From: Albugo candida
Taxonomy: Eukaryota
Reading direction: 5' to 3'
Assembly (NCBI GenBank): GCA_040437565.1
Contig: JBDOQK010000004.1
Span: 1-64,000, forward strand
DNA length: 64,000 bases
This document shows, piece by piece, positions 19,018-31,162 of the stretch; positions within the stretch are counted from its first letter, which is position 1; every line of letters begins with the position of its first letter. The position numbers and the translations under genes were made by a program. Below the pieces are notes generated by a model. That model was not told where the DNA came from and did not search any database. It worked only from the letters and a program-made list of their open reading frames with translations.

Positions 19018-20733
19018 ATGAACAGCTCTCGCCAATCATCGGCAGACAATGACCAGCTCCTTCCAATCGCAAGTGGGCCACAGCGCCAGTTGAGTCCCGT
19101 TTCACATTTCAAACGTATCCTTTCAAGAGGATACTCGGCAGATTACATGTTTTCTTCACCGGTAGAAAGCAGAAGTGATGCTCCATACACGAATGACGTA
19201 AATAGACAAGAGTCACCCTCATTTTCACGTCTCGTAAGCGCTTCGCAACAGGGGGAGGCTACTGCTGACTGCGCAGGTATGGTGAAAAGTAACGAAGAAC
19301 GCTTGCATGGGTGGCGATTATGGATGCATAATTCACGTCTCCTCGAGTTCATTGGAAGTCTGGTTAGTCTCGCGCTCGCTGGTGTTATCACTCTGACCAC
19401 CATTCATGACCGTACGTAATATTTTATGTAAATATGGTTACACGAGCTGAACATTGTAATGCGGTAGGACCGATTCCACGCGTGGAAATCCAGATCACGC
19501 CCACGCGCACCATATTCGCTCGTGACCCTTCCATTGATGAGAAAAAACTTGGTGAAACATGTACGCATCAATTTTAAATGCACATCACATGTAATCAACC
19601 AATGCTGCACTTCAGTTACTGTCACAGGTCTTATTGTTACCGGAGTAGGAGTATCGCTCGGTACACACGTTTTTGTTGCGTATATATTACCTTACTGCAA
19701 AGCCGCTCGAGTAATACGATACGAATCCCGTGATTTTCTATTGACTCTGGTACAATCGATCAGCCTGAGTGCGCTTTTTACTCAAGTGTTGAAAAATGTN
19801 NNNNNNNNNNNNNNNNNNNNNNNNNNNNNNNNNNNNNNNNNNNNNNNNNNNNNNNNNNNNNNNNNNNNNNNNNNNNNNNNNNNNNNNNNNNNNNNNNNNA
19901 GTTACTGTCACAGGTCTTATTGTTACCGGAGTAGGAGTATCGCTCGGTACACACGTTTTTGTTGCGTATATATTACCTTACTGCAAAGCCGCTCGAGTAA
20001 TACGATACGAATCCCGTGATTTTCTATTGACTCTGGTACAATCGATCAGCCTGAGTGCGCTTTTTACTCAAGTGTTGAAAAATGTCACCGGAAGATTTCG
20101 TCCGTGCTTTTATGACATGTGCGGATGGAATTACAATGTCACTTGGGATGGAATAGAAAATTTGTGCTCATTGCAGAATTGGGAAGACGAGGGACGAAAA
20201 AGTTTTCCGTCTGGACACTCGTCGTTTGCGTGGTCAACCTTATTCCTTCTCACTGTAATGTACACACGATATCCTGACACGATTGTGACCTGATCTTGTC
20301 TTGTGTAGTTGTATCTATTAGGGAGATCACGTTTGGTCAGTGCAGATCGCCAGGATCATGTTTACTTGGGATTGGTTAAAATCGTCATGCTAACATTTTG
20401 CTTCGTCCCGACATTTGTGGCTGCATGGATCTCAGTCACTCGTTCGATTGATAATTGGCATCATTACAGCGATATTTTGGCAGGTAGTCTACTGGGGGCA
20501 GGTGCAGCTGCAGTTACGTATGCTTACAACTACGGTTCCATTTTCAACTGGGACTCAGCTGGACTTCCACTTCAAGAATATCACTTTCGACGTTTGGTAC
20601 GCTAATAGGGTGCCTTAAAGTGTATCAATACTCACTTGCCGTTTCACAGAAACAAGAAAGCGAACTCGTACGGCTAGTTGAAAAATTCAGGAGTGTTTCT
20701 GATCAGACAGCTGATGAGGACCATCCCGTCTGA
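19018..20733 (+). CDS. PAP2-family lipid phosphate phosphatase, multi-exon
   Basis: C1 KNVTGRFRP, C2 SFPSGHSS, C3 TRSIDNWHHYSDILAG; transmembrane segments; 186-bp duplication around gap 19800-19899. Confidence 0.92.
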
Positions 20734-21432: not shown

Positions 21433-23338
21433 TTATGAAATCAATTTCTCTACCAAACTGACTTCTTCTAACAGCTCGTGTTGCCGCAACTCCTTTTGAT
21501 CGCTCAACTTTACAAAATCTAACGCAGCGAGCTCTTCCATAGACTTATCCGCAATATATTTCAGATCATCAGCAGTAATGAGCTTTTTGTTGAACGCACC
21601 CAGAGCAGCTGCCACATAATTCTTATAGAATACAATCCCAGATCTAAGACAGGTATAGTCATTGGGATGAGCCAGGCATTTACAATCACGTACTCTTCAT
21701 GAATCCTCTTGCTTTGCCCATCACCTGTTTTGCTCTCTTGCGGATTGATATCATGAACGAATGCAGCAATAACTTGATCAGAATATTGCTCCAGCATGAG
21801 TGATGCAGCTAACGCATCACCTTGTCCAGAGTCTCCGAAAAATACAAACTTGAATTCTGGAAATATAGTCGCGAATCGTTTGAAGTTTTCAAACTTGTGC
21901 CTAAAAAGCGCAAGTTATAAATATGCACGATACATCACTAAACTTTCTTACAGTGCAATTTTTTTGTTGCTGATCAAACCTTGCACCGTACCGTTCATAA
22001 CGGTAGGACTTGGTAGCCCAAGGTTATTTAAATGCTGAACCGTTAGATAGCGCCCCACATTAAGCCACCCGCGAGGTCGGGCTGTCAAAAATGTGACACA
22101 CGGACCGTGTTCGTCAAAAGACGATAGTCCACGTGAAATTTTCGTAAATAGCTGCGAAACGCCAGGGTACATCGTATTCAATGGATATCTTTGCTCCAAC
22201 CAGCTATCGGCAAAAGAATTTAATCGAGCACAGTATCTAAAAATATATTTGGATCGTACCCGGCAATAAGTGTATCATCAATATCACTAATGACTTTGAT
22301 TAGATTTGGACGGCTTTGAGCGACTTTGGCGGCTTCCGTGGCAATATGTTGCATAATACGCACGATTTCAGTGACATTGGAGGTATTGTAGATCAAGTCT
22401 GTTAAGTCGCCATAGTAATGAGAAACTGTTGGAACTTTAAGGTTGTATCTTCGGCGTTTTCTTCGTTCTCTACTTGCTTTGGTTACGTTTTGTAATGTTT
22501 GCAGCCAATTTTTCATACGTTCAAGGGCAAATTTCGAATACGGTGATTTCCATAGTGGGGTGTTCTGTATACGCACACTACCACAGGCAGTACTAGGTTG
22601 CATCAGTGCCACTGCGTCGGGATTGGTGTGAATTAGCTCTTTCAAAACCGATAAATCTTTCTCATATGTGCCCAATAATATTTGTATCACCGCTTTACGT
22701 AGCTGTATTTTACTTTTCTCTGTAAGAAACGATGAGATTAAGCAGCTTTGGATAGCATGTACAATGATAGCACGGTTGGAAACGCTATCAAAAGTATACC
22801 AAGTTCAGTATGTATCGATGTCATTGTCACTCTGTATTTACGTGATCTCATCAAGCCTTTCTCGAGTCAAGACATTCAAAATCCGAAGACGGACATCAGC
22901 TGTTGATCCATACAACATGAACCCTGTCATGGTATAGCAGAATTGATTTGAATGCTCCGGAGAAGTCGCACTCAGTATCCCATTCAATGTCGACGCACTG
23001 ACTCTTTGTAGGACTCTATCAAAAGCCATTGTGTCGTTCTCGGTCTTGGTACTCAGCTAAATAGAACCCAAGTAGATGTCAAGTTTATATGCTATAGACA
23101 TGACAATGTCTGCGATTTACATTGAAAAGAACTTCTTTTTCTTGTTGCTGATCGGTACTGAAAACAATGACAGCATTTTTATCTTTCAGTTTGCGGTAGC
23201 GCCAAACCGTTCGCTGAGGACCAAATCGATTCAGCCACTCGTTCCACAGCCATGCACGTACTCACTTGCTTCATTGCAATCCATTTTTGCTGTAGTCCGT
23301 TGGCTGCGATACGCCAAGTAGAGAACGGGGCGCACCAT
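21433..23338 (-). CDS. APP1-like (DUF2183) HAD-type phosphatidate phosphatase domain protein, multi-exon
   Basis: KVISDIDDTL (DxDxT), YPGV, FLTARP and FPEFKFVFFGDSGQGD; start position approximate. Confidence 0.75.
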
Positions 23339-23586
23339 ACATTCTGATTGTGTACCTTTTCACACAGCGGTCATAAACGTTCGGTGCACACTATAGCATG
23401 AGAATCAGACCTTCACAGTAGTGCGAATAAACGGTCGAAATTTTGAAGCATAAATCGAGACCACCTGCATGGTTAAATTTAGTTTGATTGGTTAAAATGA
23501 AAATCATATCGATTAGGCATTTTTCAATTTAATAGCAAACAGCGTGAACTACGATTTCAAGCAAAACTGTTCGTCCCATTTTGAAG

Positions 23587-24695
23587 ATGTCGGCAAGGTT
23601 TGTCCAATCGTGTGCATTGTATCGAGCTCGTGCTCAAGAAACTATTTCTGTTATAGAGAAATCAAGCCAAAGCAGGAGAAAATTCAATTGAGTCGCTCTG
23701 TAAAGAAAGAAGATGAGGTGCCATTAGCATCGTTACCGTCTCCATCCAGTTTAATACCGGTACAGACAGAAGCAACCCAAGCTTCTTGTGCAACCAATCG
23801 TACACGTCGTCCGGAATACTCGTTGGAAACGCGACTGGCTTGTGTGGAAAAGCATGAAGCCGGAATGGGATACCGACGAATATCAAAAGATCTCAATATG
23901 CCTCTGTCGACAGTCAAGGCCATTATACGGAGTGTTCGGCGTACGGGTACTATAGAAAAAGCGCATCGTTCGGGTCGACCGCGTGTGACAGACTCCAAAT
24001 TGGATGGTGTTATGATCGCAGCTGTCATTGCTGAACGTCAAACTAGTGCAGCGGCTATCGTTCGAACTCTGAGGGATACCTACAATATCAGCATATCGGA
24101 AGAAACAGTACGTCGACGAATTCGAGAGTTTTCGCGGCAAAATACATCTCTCGCCAAACGAGCGAAATCACATGGACCGATTCCTGCAGGATTAGAATCA
24201 TCCTTTCTTTCTTTTTCGGGGACTGAAGATCAAGTCGATACAAACGCGCTCATGAATACAGCACTACCGTTCCCACTCAGCGATACGATACCGGGTCACT
24301 TTTTATCCAGTGAAGGAATTTCTTCGCAATCCGTGGAAAATACTGACATTATGGCGCAACCGGTTGATGAACCCACAGGCTCAGTAATCGGTGGTGAGAG
24401 GGAAAATGGAACGAATGCGAATGCGTTGCCAGATTATGTAGAACGTTTTGAAGGAGACAAACCTTACAGTGGCGATACAGAGTTACAGACAAGCCCGACG
24501 GTGCTGAAAGCCATTTCCTTATTGGCAGAATTTGATTTAACCGTTAGGGAGCGCGTGGATGCGAAACAGTTCCTTGTACATGAGAAGAACGCGGAAGCTT
24601 TTCTATTTATGGATAAGGAAGAACGAGTAGAGTATCTACAGAGATTTTGTTATGAGAAAAGCGACGTGAGGTTTGAAAATTCAGAGTTTGTTTAA
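23587..24695 (+). CDS. Tc1/mariner-type bipartite HTH DNA-binding protein lacking a DDE domain
   Basis: ATG 23587, intron 23598-23656; EYSLETRLACVEKHEAGMGYRRISKDLNMPLSTVKAII...HRSGRPR...ISISEETVRRRIRE mirrors the PAI-GRPR-RED domain of Tc1-like transposases; followed by a low-complexity linker and a short helical C-terminal domain. Confidence 0.8.
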
Positions 24696-25086
24696 GTATA
24701 CAAAATCTGAAGTCATTGTTACTAATTCATTGTCACTTGTTACAATCAGGATGCAAAGAGAAAAAATACCGATTTCTTGGGTCCGAATTGAAGCCCGAGG
24801 GCAAAACTTAATGCTAGAGACACCCTATCCCTGTAAATAAAACCCATAAAAACGTGTGCGTAATAAATGCTTACTGATGCAAGATTTCGCATTTCGCATA
24901 TTTGGCACCGTTGTGGGAAATTTGGTAACTTTAGTTTTCGATTTACAATTCCAAAAGCACGAGAATTGAATCTTTACAACGTGGTGACCATCGATACTGA
25001 TCCACTGAAAAAACAAAACTCTACTGTCCAGTCCTTTCCTTGTGAGAAACATATACCCATCAGGGATCCTCTCCACAGAAAACGTG

Positions 25087-25665
25087 ATGCAGCACAGAAA
25101 AAAGTCTTACTCCGCGTACGAGTATCGTGACAATAATGATGAATTGAGTCAGAGGCACAGCAAAAACCCGCGGTCTAGTACGACCGTGTCCACGGATATC
25201 TCCACTGGCGATCGACTTGCTGATTGGATGTATTGGCAACGTGACATTGCAAACAGAAGGTGTTGGACAAAAGTATATGCTGTAATTGAAGCTGAATTTC
25301 TCCAATTGCATCCATCAGACCGGTGTATCAGAAACCCATTGATCCAGATCGCTGTTGCTAGTGCTTCATTTACCGGAACGCAGCAAATTCAGATTGTTGA
25401 TCCAAATGGTGAAAAACTTGATTTATATCTGTTTTATCCTGAAAGGGCAGCTTTGTGGAGTTCAAGATTACAAATCGCCGCCTCACTAACTCAAGATTAT
25501 TTCGAAGCTTTTAGTATTCGCGCAAGCGAACTGTCTCGAGCTAGTGCGTACCGTGGCAGCTTGATAACATATCGCGAAGAAGAGAAAAAGATCAGAAAAA
25601 GGGAATATTTGACCATCAAACTACTGGGATTGCTCGGTTGTAAACGGCGCGTGAATATAACGTGA
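25087..25665 (+). CDS. Small PH-domain-like protein (paralogue 1)
   Basis: LADWMYWQRD...WTKVYAVIE...LQL and ALWSSRLQIAA fit the PH strand 1-2 and terminal helix pattern. Confidence 0.7.
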   Translation: MQHRKKSYSAYEYRDNNDELSQRHSKNPRSSTTVSTDISTGDRLADWMYWQRDIANRRCWTKVYAVIEAEFLQLHPSDRCIRNPLIQIAVASASFTGTQQIQIVDPNGEKLDLYLFYPERAALWSSRLQIAASLTQDYFEAFSIRASELSRASAYRGSLITYREEEKKIRKREYLTIKLLGLLGCKRRVNIT

Positions 25666-26014
25666 AGAAAAGTACGCAATGAATGTATGGTCGACCACCA
25701 CCGTGTGACTCTGAAAATTTCGCACTGTTCTTCGTGTGTGTGGCTATGCTTATACCGTAATGTATAGTAATATATAATAGTGTACAGTGATACGTAACGT
25801 CAGTTTAAAAGTATTACGTTAACCTACAAATTTCAAACGACGCTCTAGACTCTTTGACTTTTTTGAGGCTTCTATATTGTATACAACTCTGTAAAAATTG
25901 ATGTGCAGAGAAAGACTTGATTACGGTTTATCGCTTATAATGACTTAAAAATCAATGATCAATTGGCCAGTTGAGTGAATTGTTTGATCATTGGCGAATC
26001 AGCAACAAAGCAAG

Positions 26015-26662
26015 ATGACCCTCAAGATGTTATTTCGGAAATCAAAGAGCGGGTATACGTTTTCAACCCAATCAGTAGCATCTACCCCAGTGGCCGTGGA
26101 ACCTATCAAGACAAACCTAGGAAATCGCGTTTCAGTCGCATCAACAATTCGTACTAGTTTTACATTTCGCGATAACCAGGAAGTGACATCTCCTCGATCT
26201 ATTCAGTCGATTAGCTCCAAAGTGTCTGAGTTGCAGACTTGGATGTACTGGAAGCAAGACCCTTTCCGATCCGAGTCTTGGGTCAAAGTGTTCGCAACGC
26301 TGGAGGGCCAAGTAGTCACAATCATGCAGCAGCAGCATAACGTCCAAATCCCATTGGTAGAAATGACAGTTGCTCGAGTCGAAGTCACTTCTATCGGTGG
26401 ACTTTTGATCTATGATGTTATTGGACGAATCTTCGAGTTTTATTTGTATCAGAATACCGACGATCGCTTTTTCGGATGGTATGAAGCCTTGTTAAATGCG
26501 GCAGAGCAAACAGTAGATGAACTTCCCAGCTATTATTCCGCGGCATCAACCAGTGGTACAGAGATCGAAGATATTGAAATGGAGCAATGCATGCCTTGTT
26601 CCCTATTCCAAAGATTGAGCAGGAAACGCCGTCTACCAAAGCAACAATTTCGATGGAGTTAA
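26015..26662 (+). CDS. Small PH-domain-like protein (paralogue 2)
   Basis: LQTWMYWKQD...WVKVFATLE and GWYEALLNAA align by eye with the neighbouring gene. Confidence 0.7.
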   Translation: MTLKMLFRKSKSGYTFSTQSVASTPVAVEPIKTNLGNRVSVASTIRTSFTFRDNQEVTSPRSIQSISSKVSELQTWMYWKQDPFRSESWVKVFATLEGQVVTIMQQQHNVQIPLVEMTVARVEVTSIGGLLIYDVIGRIFEFYLYQNTDDRFFGWYEALLNAAEQTVDELPSYYSAASTSGTEIEDIEMEQCMPCSLFQRLSRKRRLPKQQFRWS

Positions 26663-29086: not shown

Positions 29087-31162
29087 TCAGTTTTTGTTTA
29101 TCGGAAGAATATATGCATTGGAATGTCCACTTGCAATGGCGCGTACGCCTTTCACGTCGGAAGAAGGCTGGAGACCCCAATGGAACACTTGACCGTCTTT
29201 ACATAACGCAGTTGTGTGTCGTCCACCACAAACAACGTCTTTGACGCTCTCTAGAGACTCTTGTGTCGCTGGATTTTGACTGCTTACAACACAAGGTGAT
29301 ACTTTGGAAGCTTTTGCTTCATGACCCTGCGAGAAAACGTCAGATACGACGCGGGAATGTCAATGATAGCTGTACCAGCTGCCCGTCTTGATTCCATCCC
29401 CAAGTGTAGAGATCGCCAGAGGAAGTGCATGCTAAAGAAAACAGATGAAGCAGATGCATTGAATGTCACGAGAAAGGTTACCGGCTGTATGCCACATGCC
29501 ACAAGCGACTGTTTTGATGCGGAGAGGGGATCCTTGATGGTCAAATATTCCATCAAAAGCCTCGATTCGAGTGAGTTCATGTCGATTTTCAGTGGTTCCG
29601 TGTCCGAGCTGATGGTACAGCCCCCAACCGAAGGTGTAAAGTTGACCAAACTCCAGCGATATCGCAGCTGAATGCGCGTATCCTGCAGCAATGAGCTGGA
29701 TTGGTTGTGACTCGGTTCTTTCGACTAATTGTGGAGTCTGTACGCTTTTGATATCGCGGAACGCTTCGCCGAGTCCTAATTCACCATACCAGTTTCGTCC
29801 CCAAGTCCAAAGTCGATGACTTTGATCGAGTAACATTGAGTGTCCAAAGCCGGCAGATACTTGAATGACAGCGACTGGCAGGGCGACGAGATTGGGAGTA
29901 AAGACGCAATTTGGTAGTTTGTTGTTGGATTTTGGATCTGGCGGAAATGGACCGACTTGGCCGTACGTATTCGATCCCCATGCATACAAGAATCCTGACT
30001 ACGTGAAAAATGAGAAAGAGCAGTGAAAATACCTTTGTCGATGACCGCCAGTACGTGATGCCAGCCACAAGCGACACGTTGCCATCGGAGTAAAGATGAC
30101 GGGAAAAGCACGTGTGGTTTCGCACATATTACTTGATACTCTTCATTCATTGTAGATCCTTGAATTCCATCCTCTGCACCAAGTNNNNNNNNNNNNNNNN
30201 NNNNNNNNNNNNNNNNNNNNNNNNNNNNNNNNNNNNNNNNNNNNNNNNNNNNNNNNNNNNNNNNNNNNNNNNNNNNNNNNNNNNGCGGAGAGGGGATCCT
30301 TGATGGTCAAATATTCCATCAAAAGCCTCGATTCGAGTGAGTTCATGTCGATTTTCAGTGGTTCCGTGTCCGAGCTGATGGTACAGCCCCCAACCGAAGG
30401 TGTAAAGTTGACCAAACTCCAGCGATATCGCAGCTGAATGCGCGTATCCTGCAGCAATGAGCTGGATTGGTTGTGACTCGGTTCTTTCGACTAATTGTGG
30501 AGTCTGTACGCTTTTGATATCGCGGAACGCTTCGCCGAGTCCTAATTCACCATACCAGTTTCGTCCCCAAGTCCAAAGTCGATGACTTTGATCGAGTAAC
30601 ATTGAGTGTCCAAAGCCGGCAGATACTTGAATGACAGCGACTGGCAGGGCGACGAGATTGGGAGTAAAGACGCAATTTGGTAGTTTGTTGTTGGATTTTG
30701 GATCTGGCGGAAATGGACCGACTTGGCCGTACGTATTCGATCCCCATGCATACAAGAATCCTGACTACGTGAAAAATGAGAAAGAGCAGTGAAAATACCT
30801 TTGTCGATGACCGCCAGTACGTGATGCCAGCCACAAGCGACACGTTGCCATCGGAGTAAAGATGACGGGAAAAGCACGTGTGGTTTCGCACATATTACTT
30901 GATACTCTTCATTCATTGTAGATCCTTGAATTCCATCCTCTGCACCAAGTTCGCCGTAAAACGCACTACCCCATCCAATTAATTGATTCGTGTCATTCAT
31001 TGCGATACAAAATGTCTCTCCACCGCATATTTGAGTGATAAACGAGATTTGGATGCCTGAATGTCGCTTACGCTTTGAGCCCGTTCCTTCCAAACTTTTC
31101 GACTTATCTTCGTTCAGATCCGTACCAAACGAAGTCTGACCAATAGATCGCCATCGCATCAT
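29087..31162 (-). CDS. RCC1-repeat protein, multi-exon
   Basis: Repeats ACGWHHVLAV, AWGSNTYGQVG, SAGFGHSM, TWGRNWYGELG, AAGYAHSA, ACGMWHTA and CGGRHTTA; 666-bp artefactual duplication around gap 30185-30284. Confidence 0.9.
29519..30950. repeat. 666-bp direct duplication flanking a 100-N gap (assembly overlap)
   Basis: 29519-30184 matches 30285-30950; both copies abut the gap. Confidence 0.9.

Follow-up and report, generated by a model that had tools for sequence, protein, structure and literature searches.

We identified, in a stretch of Albugo candida DNA 64,000 nt in length (hereafter the window), a gene at positions 23587 to 24695 that we think is probably a single, expressed Albugo gene that encodes a PAI-RED module with no DDE catalytic domain, belongs to an old oomycete family, and serves as a DNA-binding regulator. 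The plus-strand frame contains no stop codon from 23517 until the TAA at 24693-24695, and its first in-frame ATG does not occur before 23865. An ATG at 23587 joins this open frame after removal of 23598-23656, and the predicted product of the two exons (23587-23597 and 23657-24695) is 349 aa long. Residues are numbered here by the exon-2 ORF (residues 1-345, with residue 1 at 23658), and numbering in the full protein is four higher. The gene model has the following parts.

23587..23597, plus strand: exon 1, ATG TCG GCA AG, encoding M S A, with the start of the R codon in its last two bases (sequence, RNA-like contigs, A. laibachii start)
23598..23656, plus strand: 59-nt GT..AG intron, absent from one contig each of X1 and X2 and present in X7
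23657..24695, plus strand: exon 2, including the TAA stop at 24693-24695 (sequence, A. laibachii orthologue)

The first-pass annotation of this DNA had proposed an intact ORF with a 59-nt 5' intron and had suggested RNA data as a check on the intron. To this end, four public runs were compared with positions 23300-24900. No run is recorded as RNA, and the RNA status of X1-X4 is a guess. X1 and X2, which come from a single study and whose contigs carry no expression level, are probably cDNA because two canonical introns on opposite strands are both removed in one X1 contig. One contig each of X1 and X2, with the RNA kind guessed as above, lacked exactly 59 nt with GT..AG ends (cut +2); these RNA-like contigs cross exon 1 and splice at its end. 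The X7 contig is unspliced DNA over 23598-23656, while X5 covers 10 of 30 bins and is uninformative on the 59-nt intron. The orthologue from Albugo laibachii Nc14 (P0002, AlNc14C94G5802), the only close database relative, is also 349 aa long with 85% identity, and its N-terminus, MSAR-EIKPKQEKIQ, is the exact product predicted by the 23598-23656 splice. The proposed ORF and intron were therefore borne out by both the X1/X2 contigs and the A. laibachii start, and the locus is confirmed as a real, expressed, spliced two-exon gene.

The gene was described in the first-pass annotation as head-to-head with a housekeeping gene and preceded by a CCAAT box at 23485. The region upstream contains the features listed below.

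23487..23491, minus strand: CCAAT pentamer in the 116-bp stretch between the divergent ATGs (sequence; not above chance alone)
23411..23470, minus strand: probable first coding exon of the divergent APP1-like gene, with a putative ATG at 23470 (sequence; X1 contig continuous over 23409-23595)
23356..23410, minus strand: 55-nt intron of the divergent gene (X1 contig skips 55 nt, CT..AC, cut +2)

The head-to-head arrangement held up, as the downstream exons of the divergent minus-strand gene encode an APP1_cat phosphatidate-phosphatase domain (27.7 bits, cut-off 27.1), but "housekeeping" is a loose label for it. Its probable ATG at 23470 and the plus-strand ATG at 23587 are 116 bp apart. An X1 contig of 6833 nt crosses both divergent 5' ends and lacks both the 55-nt and 59-nt introns, which points to a shared compact promoter region with overlapping or abutting transcripts. 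The CCAAT pentamer actually lies on the minus strand at 23487-23491 and was rejected as a promoter signal. Counting both strands, it occurs 206 times in the 64 kb, compared to 130.6 +/- 10.2 in dinucleotide-preserving shuffles (0 of 100 reached 206), so a single copy has no weight.

Other genes near the locus encode ribosomal protein S20, a PAP2 phosphatase, an Exo_endo_phos protein, and RCC1 repeats. Two tandem paralogous ORFs on the plus strand (25087-25665 and 26015-26662) share 28% identity over 147 aa (E 1e-16); both carry a WMYW..D....W.KV.A motif and neither has a Pfam match at E<=0.001. The window is draft scaffold: it contains 13 stretches of N, each exactly 100 nt long (19800-19899 and 30185-30284 are two of them), and several of these interrupt genes.

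The N-terminal half of the protein was previously read as a complete bipartite helix-turn-helix (HTH) with a GRPR linker, in the layout of the PAI/RED domain of Tc1-like transposases. The module is composed of three elements.

23814..23954, plus strand: PAI subdomain, residues 53-99, first three-helix bundle (HTH_SB, 2m8e, AlphaFold2 helices)
23973..23984, plus strand: GRPR linker motif, residues 106-109 (sequence, alignment)
23994..24170, plus strand: RED subdomain, residues 113-171, second three-helix bundle, ending ...ISEETVRRRIREFSRQ (HTH_Tnp_Tc3_2, helices)

A transposase HTH match, on which that reading had been staked, was found: Pfam HTH_SB matched residues 53-99 at 49.8 bits (cut-off 43). 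HTH_Tnp_Tc3_2 on residues 121-158 (21.8 bits, cut-off 31.5) and HTH_32 (26.8 bits, cut-off 33.7) fell below their cut-offs. The Sleeping Beauty PAI structure 2m8e matched residues 51-100 (E 0.0076). In an AlphaFold2 model built from a 40-sequence alignment, helices were predicted at residues 56-67, 72-79, and 83-96 in PAI and at 113-125, 131-142, and 148-171 in RED, all with pLDDT >90; G106 and R107 were nearly invariant in the 40 aligned sequences. The best Foldseek matches in the PDB were the paired domains of Pax5, Pax6, and Prd (E 2e-4 to 7e-4), followed by the SETMAR DNA-binding domain, the Tc3 bipartite domain, and Mos1. The HTH_SB and 2m8e matches, the two-bundle model, and the Foldseek matches show that the HTH-GRPR-HTH reading is correct and support the conclusion that the protein carries one Tc1/Sleeping-Beauty-type PAI-GRPR-RED module.

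When 1.84 billion representative proteins were searched exhaustively with phmmer, 588 matched at E<=0.001 and 23 at E<=1e-30, the latter including the window's own protein and P0012 and P0022, which are of another repeat type. Twenty-three proteins (P0003-P0025, the last at E 2e-19 and thus above 1e-30) were scanned, and none carried a DDE family at E<=0.001. Their lengths are mostly 400-860 aa, and most contain several HTH_SB and HTH_Tnp_Tc3_2 stretches. Members were found in Pythium oligandrum, P. insidiosum, Globisporangium ultimum, nine named Phytophthora species, Nothophytophthora, and Peronospora belbahrii; their annotations go no further than "hypothetical" or "HTH domain-containing". 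This spread over Pythium, Globisporangium, Phytophthora, Nothophytophthora, and Peronospora suggests that the domestication is old. Past the family, DDE_3 appeared in 5 of the 15 next-best matches scanned.

By profile, there is one complete module in both Albugo proteins and both P. belbahrii proteins, two in Phytophthora, and two to four in Pythium- and Globisporangium-type proteins. Towards the N-terminus, additional partial or degenerate module matches occur in many of the larger family members. The Albugo protein, with its one module, does not share the arrangement of two or more in tandem. Judged by its sequence, the Albugo gene is a short, one-module form of an oomycete DDE-less family, a point that the first-pass annotation had not made.

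Several further observations were made among these matches. P0025 and P0164 (both P. belbahrii) and the window protein come from obligate biotroph lineages and have one detectable PAI-RED module each; the single module may reflect reduction in biotrophs, here seen in two lineages only. Many family C-termini are acidic-aromatic-hydrophobic (...GEFVL, ...REFVAL, ...SEYML, ...SDFTTVL, ...AFDENGVHL), and the Albugo C-terminus (24681-24692) reads ...NSEFV. This likeness was noticed post hoc and may represent a shared short C-terminal motif. P0162 (Phytophthora kernoviae, 1180 aa) is a two-module HTH protein fused to RB_A, RB_B, and DUF3452, and is probably two adjacent genes merged by annotation. 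P0012 (404 aa) and P0022 (688 aa) each have five tandem HTH_SB stretches of a different type outside the oomycete family, and may be assembled transposon fragments or another kind of tandem-PAI protein.

A word-index search for longer relatives returned none while the exhaustive search gave many, and we attribute the empty result to the limits of the word index. Among metagenome loci, 277 pattern matches yielded 0 confirmed relatives. Literature searches found no paper on this oomycete family or with the five gene or protein identifiers searched, and among the papers listed on Tc1 domestication in oomycetes or on PF01498 in Phytophthora, none dealt with this family. By its own account, a screen for co-option in fungi dropped all oomycete genes (PMC10799480).

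Trees and alignments were used to place the Albugo module. In a quick tree of 101 modules, modules grouped with those at the same position (last, penultimate, third) in other proteins rather than by species, which suggests that the array predates the Pythium-Phytophthora split. A careful tree of 29 rows, from which P0012 and P0022 were left out as they were from the quick tree, placed all oomycete modules including that of Albugo apart from eight Tc1 HTHs, three of them from proteins shown to carry DDE_3, with support of 99/96. Over 116 columns, the Albugo module was 41-48% identical to last modules, 40-46% to penultimate, and 33-44% to third modules, compared to 31-35% for the Tc1 rows. The motifs EYS.E, GYRRI, RTGT, and ETxRRR..SRQ are common to Albugo and the last modules, as is the RED end motif ...ISEETVRRRIREFSRQ to the last modules of the family, and EYS.E, GYRRI, and ETxRRR..SRQ are missing from the eight Tc1 rows. 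The simplest reading of these sequence comparisons is one old domestication with a last-module-like ancestor, whose modules would have been duplicated after the Albugo split or lost in Albugo.

The alternative is an independent, Albugo-specific capture of a Tc1 head, with the likeness to the family coming from related source transposons. Some features of the data fit such a capture. The Albugo module is nested in no module class; it falls as sister to all family modules with support of only 91/80 and on a long branch (1.24). A forced clade of Albugo with the last modules, a grouping named after the tree was seen, cost 7.1 log-likelihood units and was marginally rejected (AU p 0.033). The Albugo tail and overall architecture are also unlike those of the family, and the best true transposase, P0039, reached 38.7% identity by tblastn, near the 41-43% of the family. 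Synteny was not seen in the sole comparison possible, as nothing in the window corresponded to the Rb-like segment of P0162 (P. kernoviae). However, the 99/96 support that joins Albugo to the family and separates it from the eight sampled Tc1 HTHs, the higher 116-column identity to the family, and the three motifs missing from those Tc1 rows make independent capture unlikely, and we favor the single old domestication.

Downstream of the module, two further regions were distinguished.

24171..24482, plus strand: predicted disordered linker rich in Ser, Glu, and Thr, residues 172-275 (pLDDT 39-48)
24483..24680, plus strand: Albugo-specific C-terminal four-helix bundle, residues 276-341 (predicted structure, conservation)

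This layout agrees with the earlier description of a Ser/Glu linker followed by a short domain. Within the full model the tail reached a pLDDT of about 90; folded by itself, from only two sequences, it reached 84-88. The proteins of the two Albugo species are 97% identical over the HTH and 90% over the tail, with 75% for the linker and 67% for the N-terminus; at 90%, the tail looks like a constrained domain. A phmmer search with residues 171-345 against 150 proteins (P0002-P0151, with the later matches P0152-P0164 left out) matched only the A. laibachii orthologue. The Foldseek check suggested in the first-pass annotation for both parts of the protein had a split outcome: the HTH matched Pax, SETMAR, and Tc3, but the tail matched nothing in the PDB at E<=0.001. 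Using VIA-align, the only tail matches with Z>=5 were three MLLE domains (Z 5.7, 5.6, and 5.0; 59-66 residues), which is below the meaningful level for helical bundles, and MLLE (PABC) was matched in the tail by neither Foldseek nor Pfam. A homodimer prediction for the tail returned "no answer" (score 0.00) and counts neither way.

The first-pass annotation had likened this tail to the C-terminal domains of PIF/Harbinger-associated Myb/SANT proteins, so that the gene would be a chimera of two transposon families in which such a tail had been joined to a Tc1 head. Harbinger elements are the source of At2g29880-type proteins. The best Pfam match of the tail is At2g29880_C (PF24769), over profile positions 10-45 of 47 with E 0.051 and 0.025. 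Its scores of 14.4-15.4 bits are far under the cut-off of 26, however, and the A. laibachii tail had no Pfam match at E<=10. Myb_DNA-bind_3, other Myb families, and SANT were not matched in any part of the Albugo protein (Pfam, E<=1). The nearest Atlas feature clusters of the tail (0.92-0.93, 180-191 shared features) consist of short proteins without names, largely from plants, and clusters in which 10-13% of members bear At2g29880_C scored 0.76-0.81, but scores >=0.9 arise in 4-10 per 100 shuffled proteins. The structure search ranked MLLE domains top instead, if weakly. Among the papers listed on At2g29880 and PF12776, we found no description of the C-terminal domain. The Harbinger/Myb-SANT tail is therefore a weak lead with a sub-threshold echo and not a finding, and we consider a chimera of two transposon families quite unlikely; the preferred reading remains an oomycete PAI-RED protein with an Albugo-specific tail.

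Compared to an autonomous Tc1/mariner element, the gene has the HTH but neither the DDE domain nor terminal inverted repeats (TIRs) with a TA target duplication. A DDE family was absent among the 15 Pfam matches of the Albugo protein at E<=1. Four DDE_3-bearing transposases (P0039, P0044, P0079, and P0104) matched the window solely at 23793-24128, and a fifth, P0035, had no match in the window. In 22500-26000, only four weak inverted pairs were detected and none framed the gene; because the best of these were 14-21 nt long with 76-93% complementarity, there are no credible TIRs, and no TIRs with a TA target duplication were found at the gene. These comparisons uphold the first-pass observation that a DD34E region, TIRs, and a TA duplication are missing. 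No second copy of the protein was found within the 64-kb window. The GC content of the gene (0.457) is close to that of the window (0.447), and its GC3 of 0.38 is within the 0.36-0.49 of its neighbors. Database matches to this HTH are in many cases fragmentary or chimeric models, with 10 of the 15 next-best ones scanned lacking DDE_3 and some fused to unrelated domains. Even so, it is scarcely credible that the Albugo gene is a piece of a decaying transposon or an annotation artefact without a role in the host, given exact splicing in RNA-like contigs, a frame intact in two species at 85% identity (HTH 97%, tail 90%), host-like composition, and no TIRs or DDE remnant found.

Collectively, these findings suggest that the Albugo protein is most likely a domesticated, sequence-specific DNA-binding factor. 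The data above establish the splicing and structure of the gene, the identity of its domain, the missing DDE and TIRs, its place in the family, and the conservation of each part; its DNA binding, nuclear role, targets, and tail function are inferred. The protein would enter the nucleus and there recognize a specific two-part site in DNA, some 15-25 bp in length, with PAI and RED each placing a recognition helix in a major groove and GRPR tracking the minor groove between them. This binding mode is established for the Tc3, Sleeping Beauty, SETMAR, and Pax complexes and is applied here by analogy. Since the protein has no nuclease domain, it would be restricted to DNA binding. The conserved four-helix tail, carried on a flexible linker, may recruit partners or join molecules. 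The protein could then serve in transcription or chromatin control, perhaps at sites that Tc1-like elements left behind; it may be a transcription factor or a transposon repressor, and its targets may be promoters or relics of Tc1 ends.

A broader proposal, which we put forward tentatively and regard as rather doubtful, is that oomycetes carry a lineage-wide and so far undescribed "poly-paired" class of DNA-binding proteins with tandem Tc1-derived PAI-RED modules, a non-animal parallel to the birth of Pax that arose independently. The Albugo protein would combine one module of ancestral type with a new four-helix adaptor, possibly related to At2g29880, and would read repeated sites, perhaps relics of Tc1 ends, in chromatin or transposon control.

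The main interest of the locus lies in the tandem-module family and the Albugo-specific tail. Host genes that have taken over the Tc1/mariner DNA-binding head are well documented in animals but little studied in oomycetes, and the oomycete transcription factor repertoire appears to be less well mapped than those of fungi or plants. A conserved family with one to four complete tandem modules would form a candidate class of DNA-binding regulators in major plant pathogens, and the series of one-, two-, three-, and four-module proteins offers natural material on how modular HTH arrays read DNA. The Albugo gene, which is small, single-module, and expressed, is a tractable candidate.

Among known systems, the N-terminal domain of Tc1, Sleeping Beauty, and Tc3 shares its domain family and fold with the Albugo protein, in which GRPR is also present. 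Unlike these transposases, the Albugo gene has no DDE domain, TIRs, or TA duplication, and it is spliced and conserved with a different C-terminus. SETMAR is an animal example of domestication of a Tc1/mariner DNA-binding head. CENP-B and the fission yeast Abp1-Cbh proteins are pogo-derived host proteins that bind genomic repeats. CENP-B(1-129) was among the weaker fold matches (rank 27) and is a plausible functional analogue as a host protein with an HTH pair of the Tc1/mariner superfamily, but it belongs to another subfamily (pogo/CENP-B_N) and retains a degenerate DDE region.

Among animals, the parallels are further domestications of Tc1/mariner DNA-binding modules, of which one source gives the paired domain of Pax and, from Drosophila, cag, toy, and CG4570 (PMC13548663). 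Like the Albugo gene, these are conserved host genes that keep only the paired-like module of the transposase. The paired domains of Pax5, Pax6, and Prd were the top structural matches, but the likeness is structural only: Pfam PAX (PF00292) had no match in the Albugo protein at E<=1, and the Albugo model has no N-terminal beta-hairpin, no strands, and no homeodomain partner. The Albugo protein also differs from the animal domestications in its oomycete host and in having relatives with tandem module arrays; no description of tandem arrays of the PAI-RED module was found in the literature searched.

A further comparison is with the oomycete proteins annotated as "Sleeping Beauty transposase HTH domain-containing", which lack DDE and fall on the same side of the tree as Albugo. 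These include Poli38472_007980 of Pythium oligandrum, PPTG_05766 of P. nicotianae, and PHYSODRAFT_312563 of P. sojae, with 41-48% module identity and shared motifs. They have one to four complete modules in 286-882 aa (1180 aa in the fused model) and short, low-complexity tails, whereas the Albugo protein has one module in 349 aa and a folded four-helix tail that is missing from those oomycete proteins.
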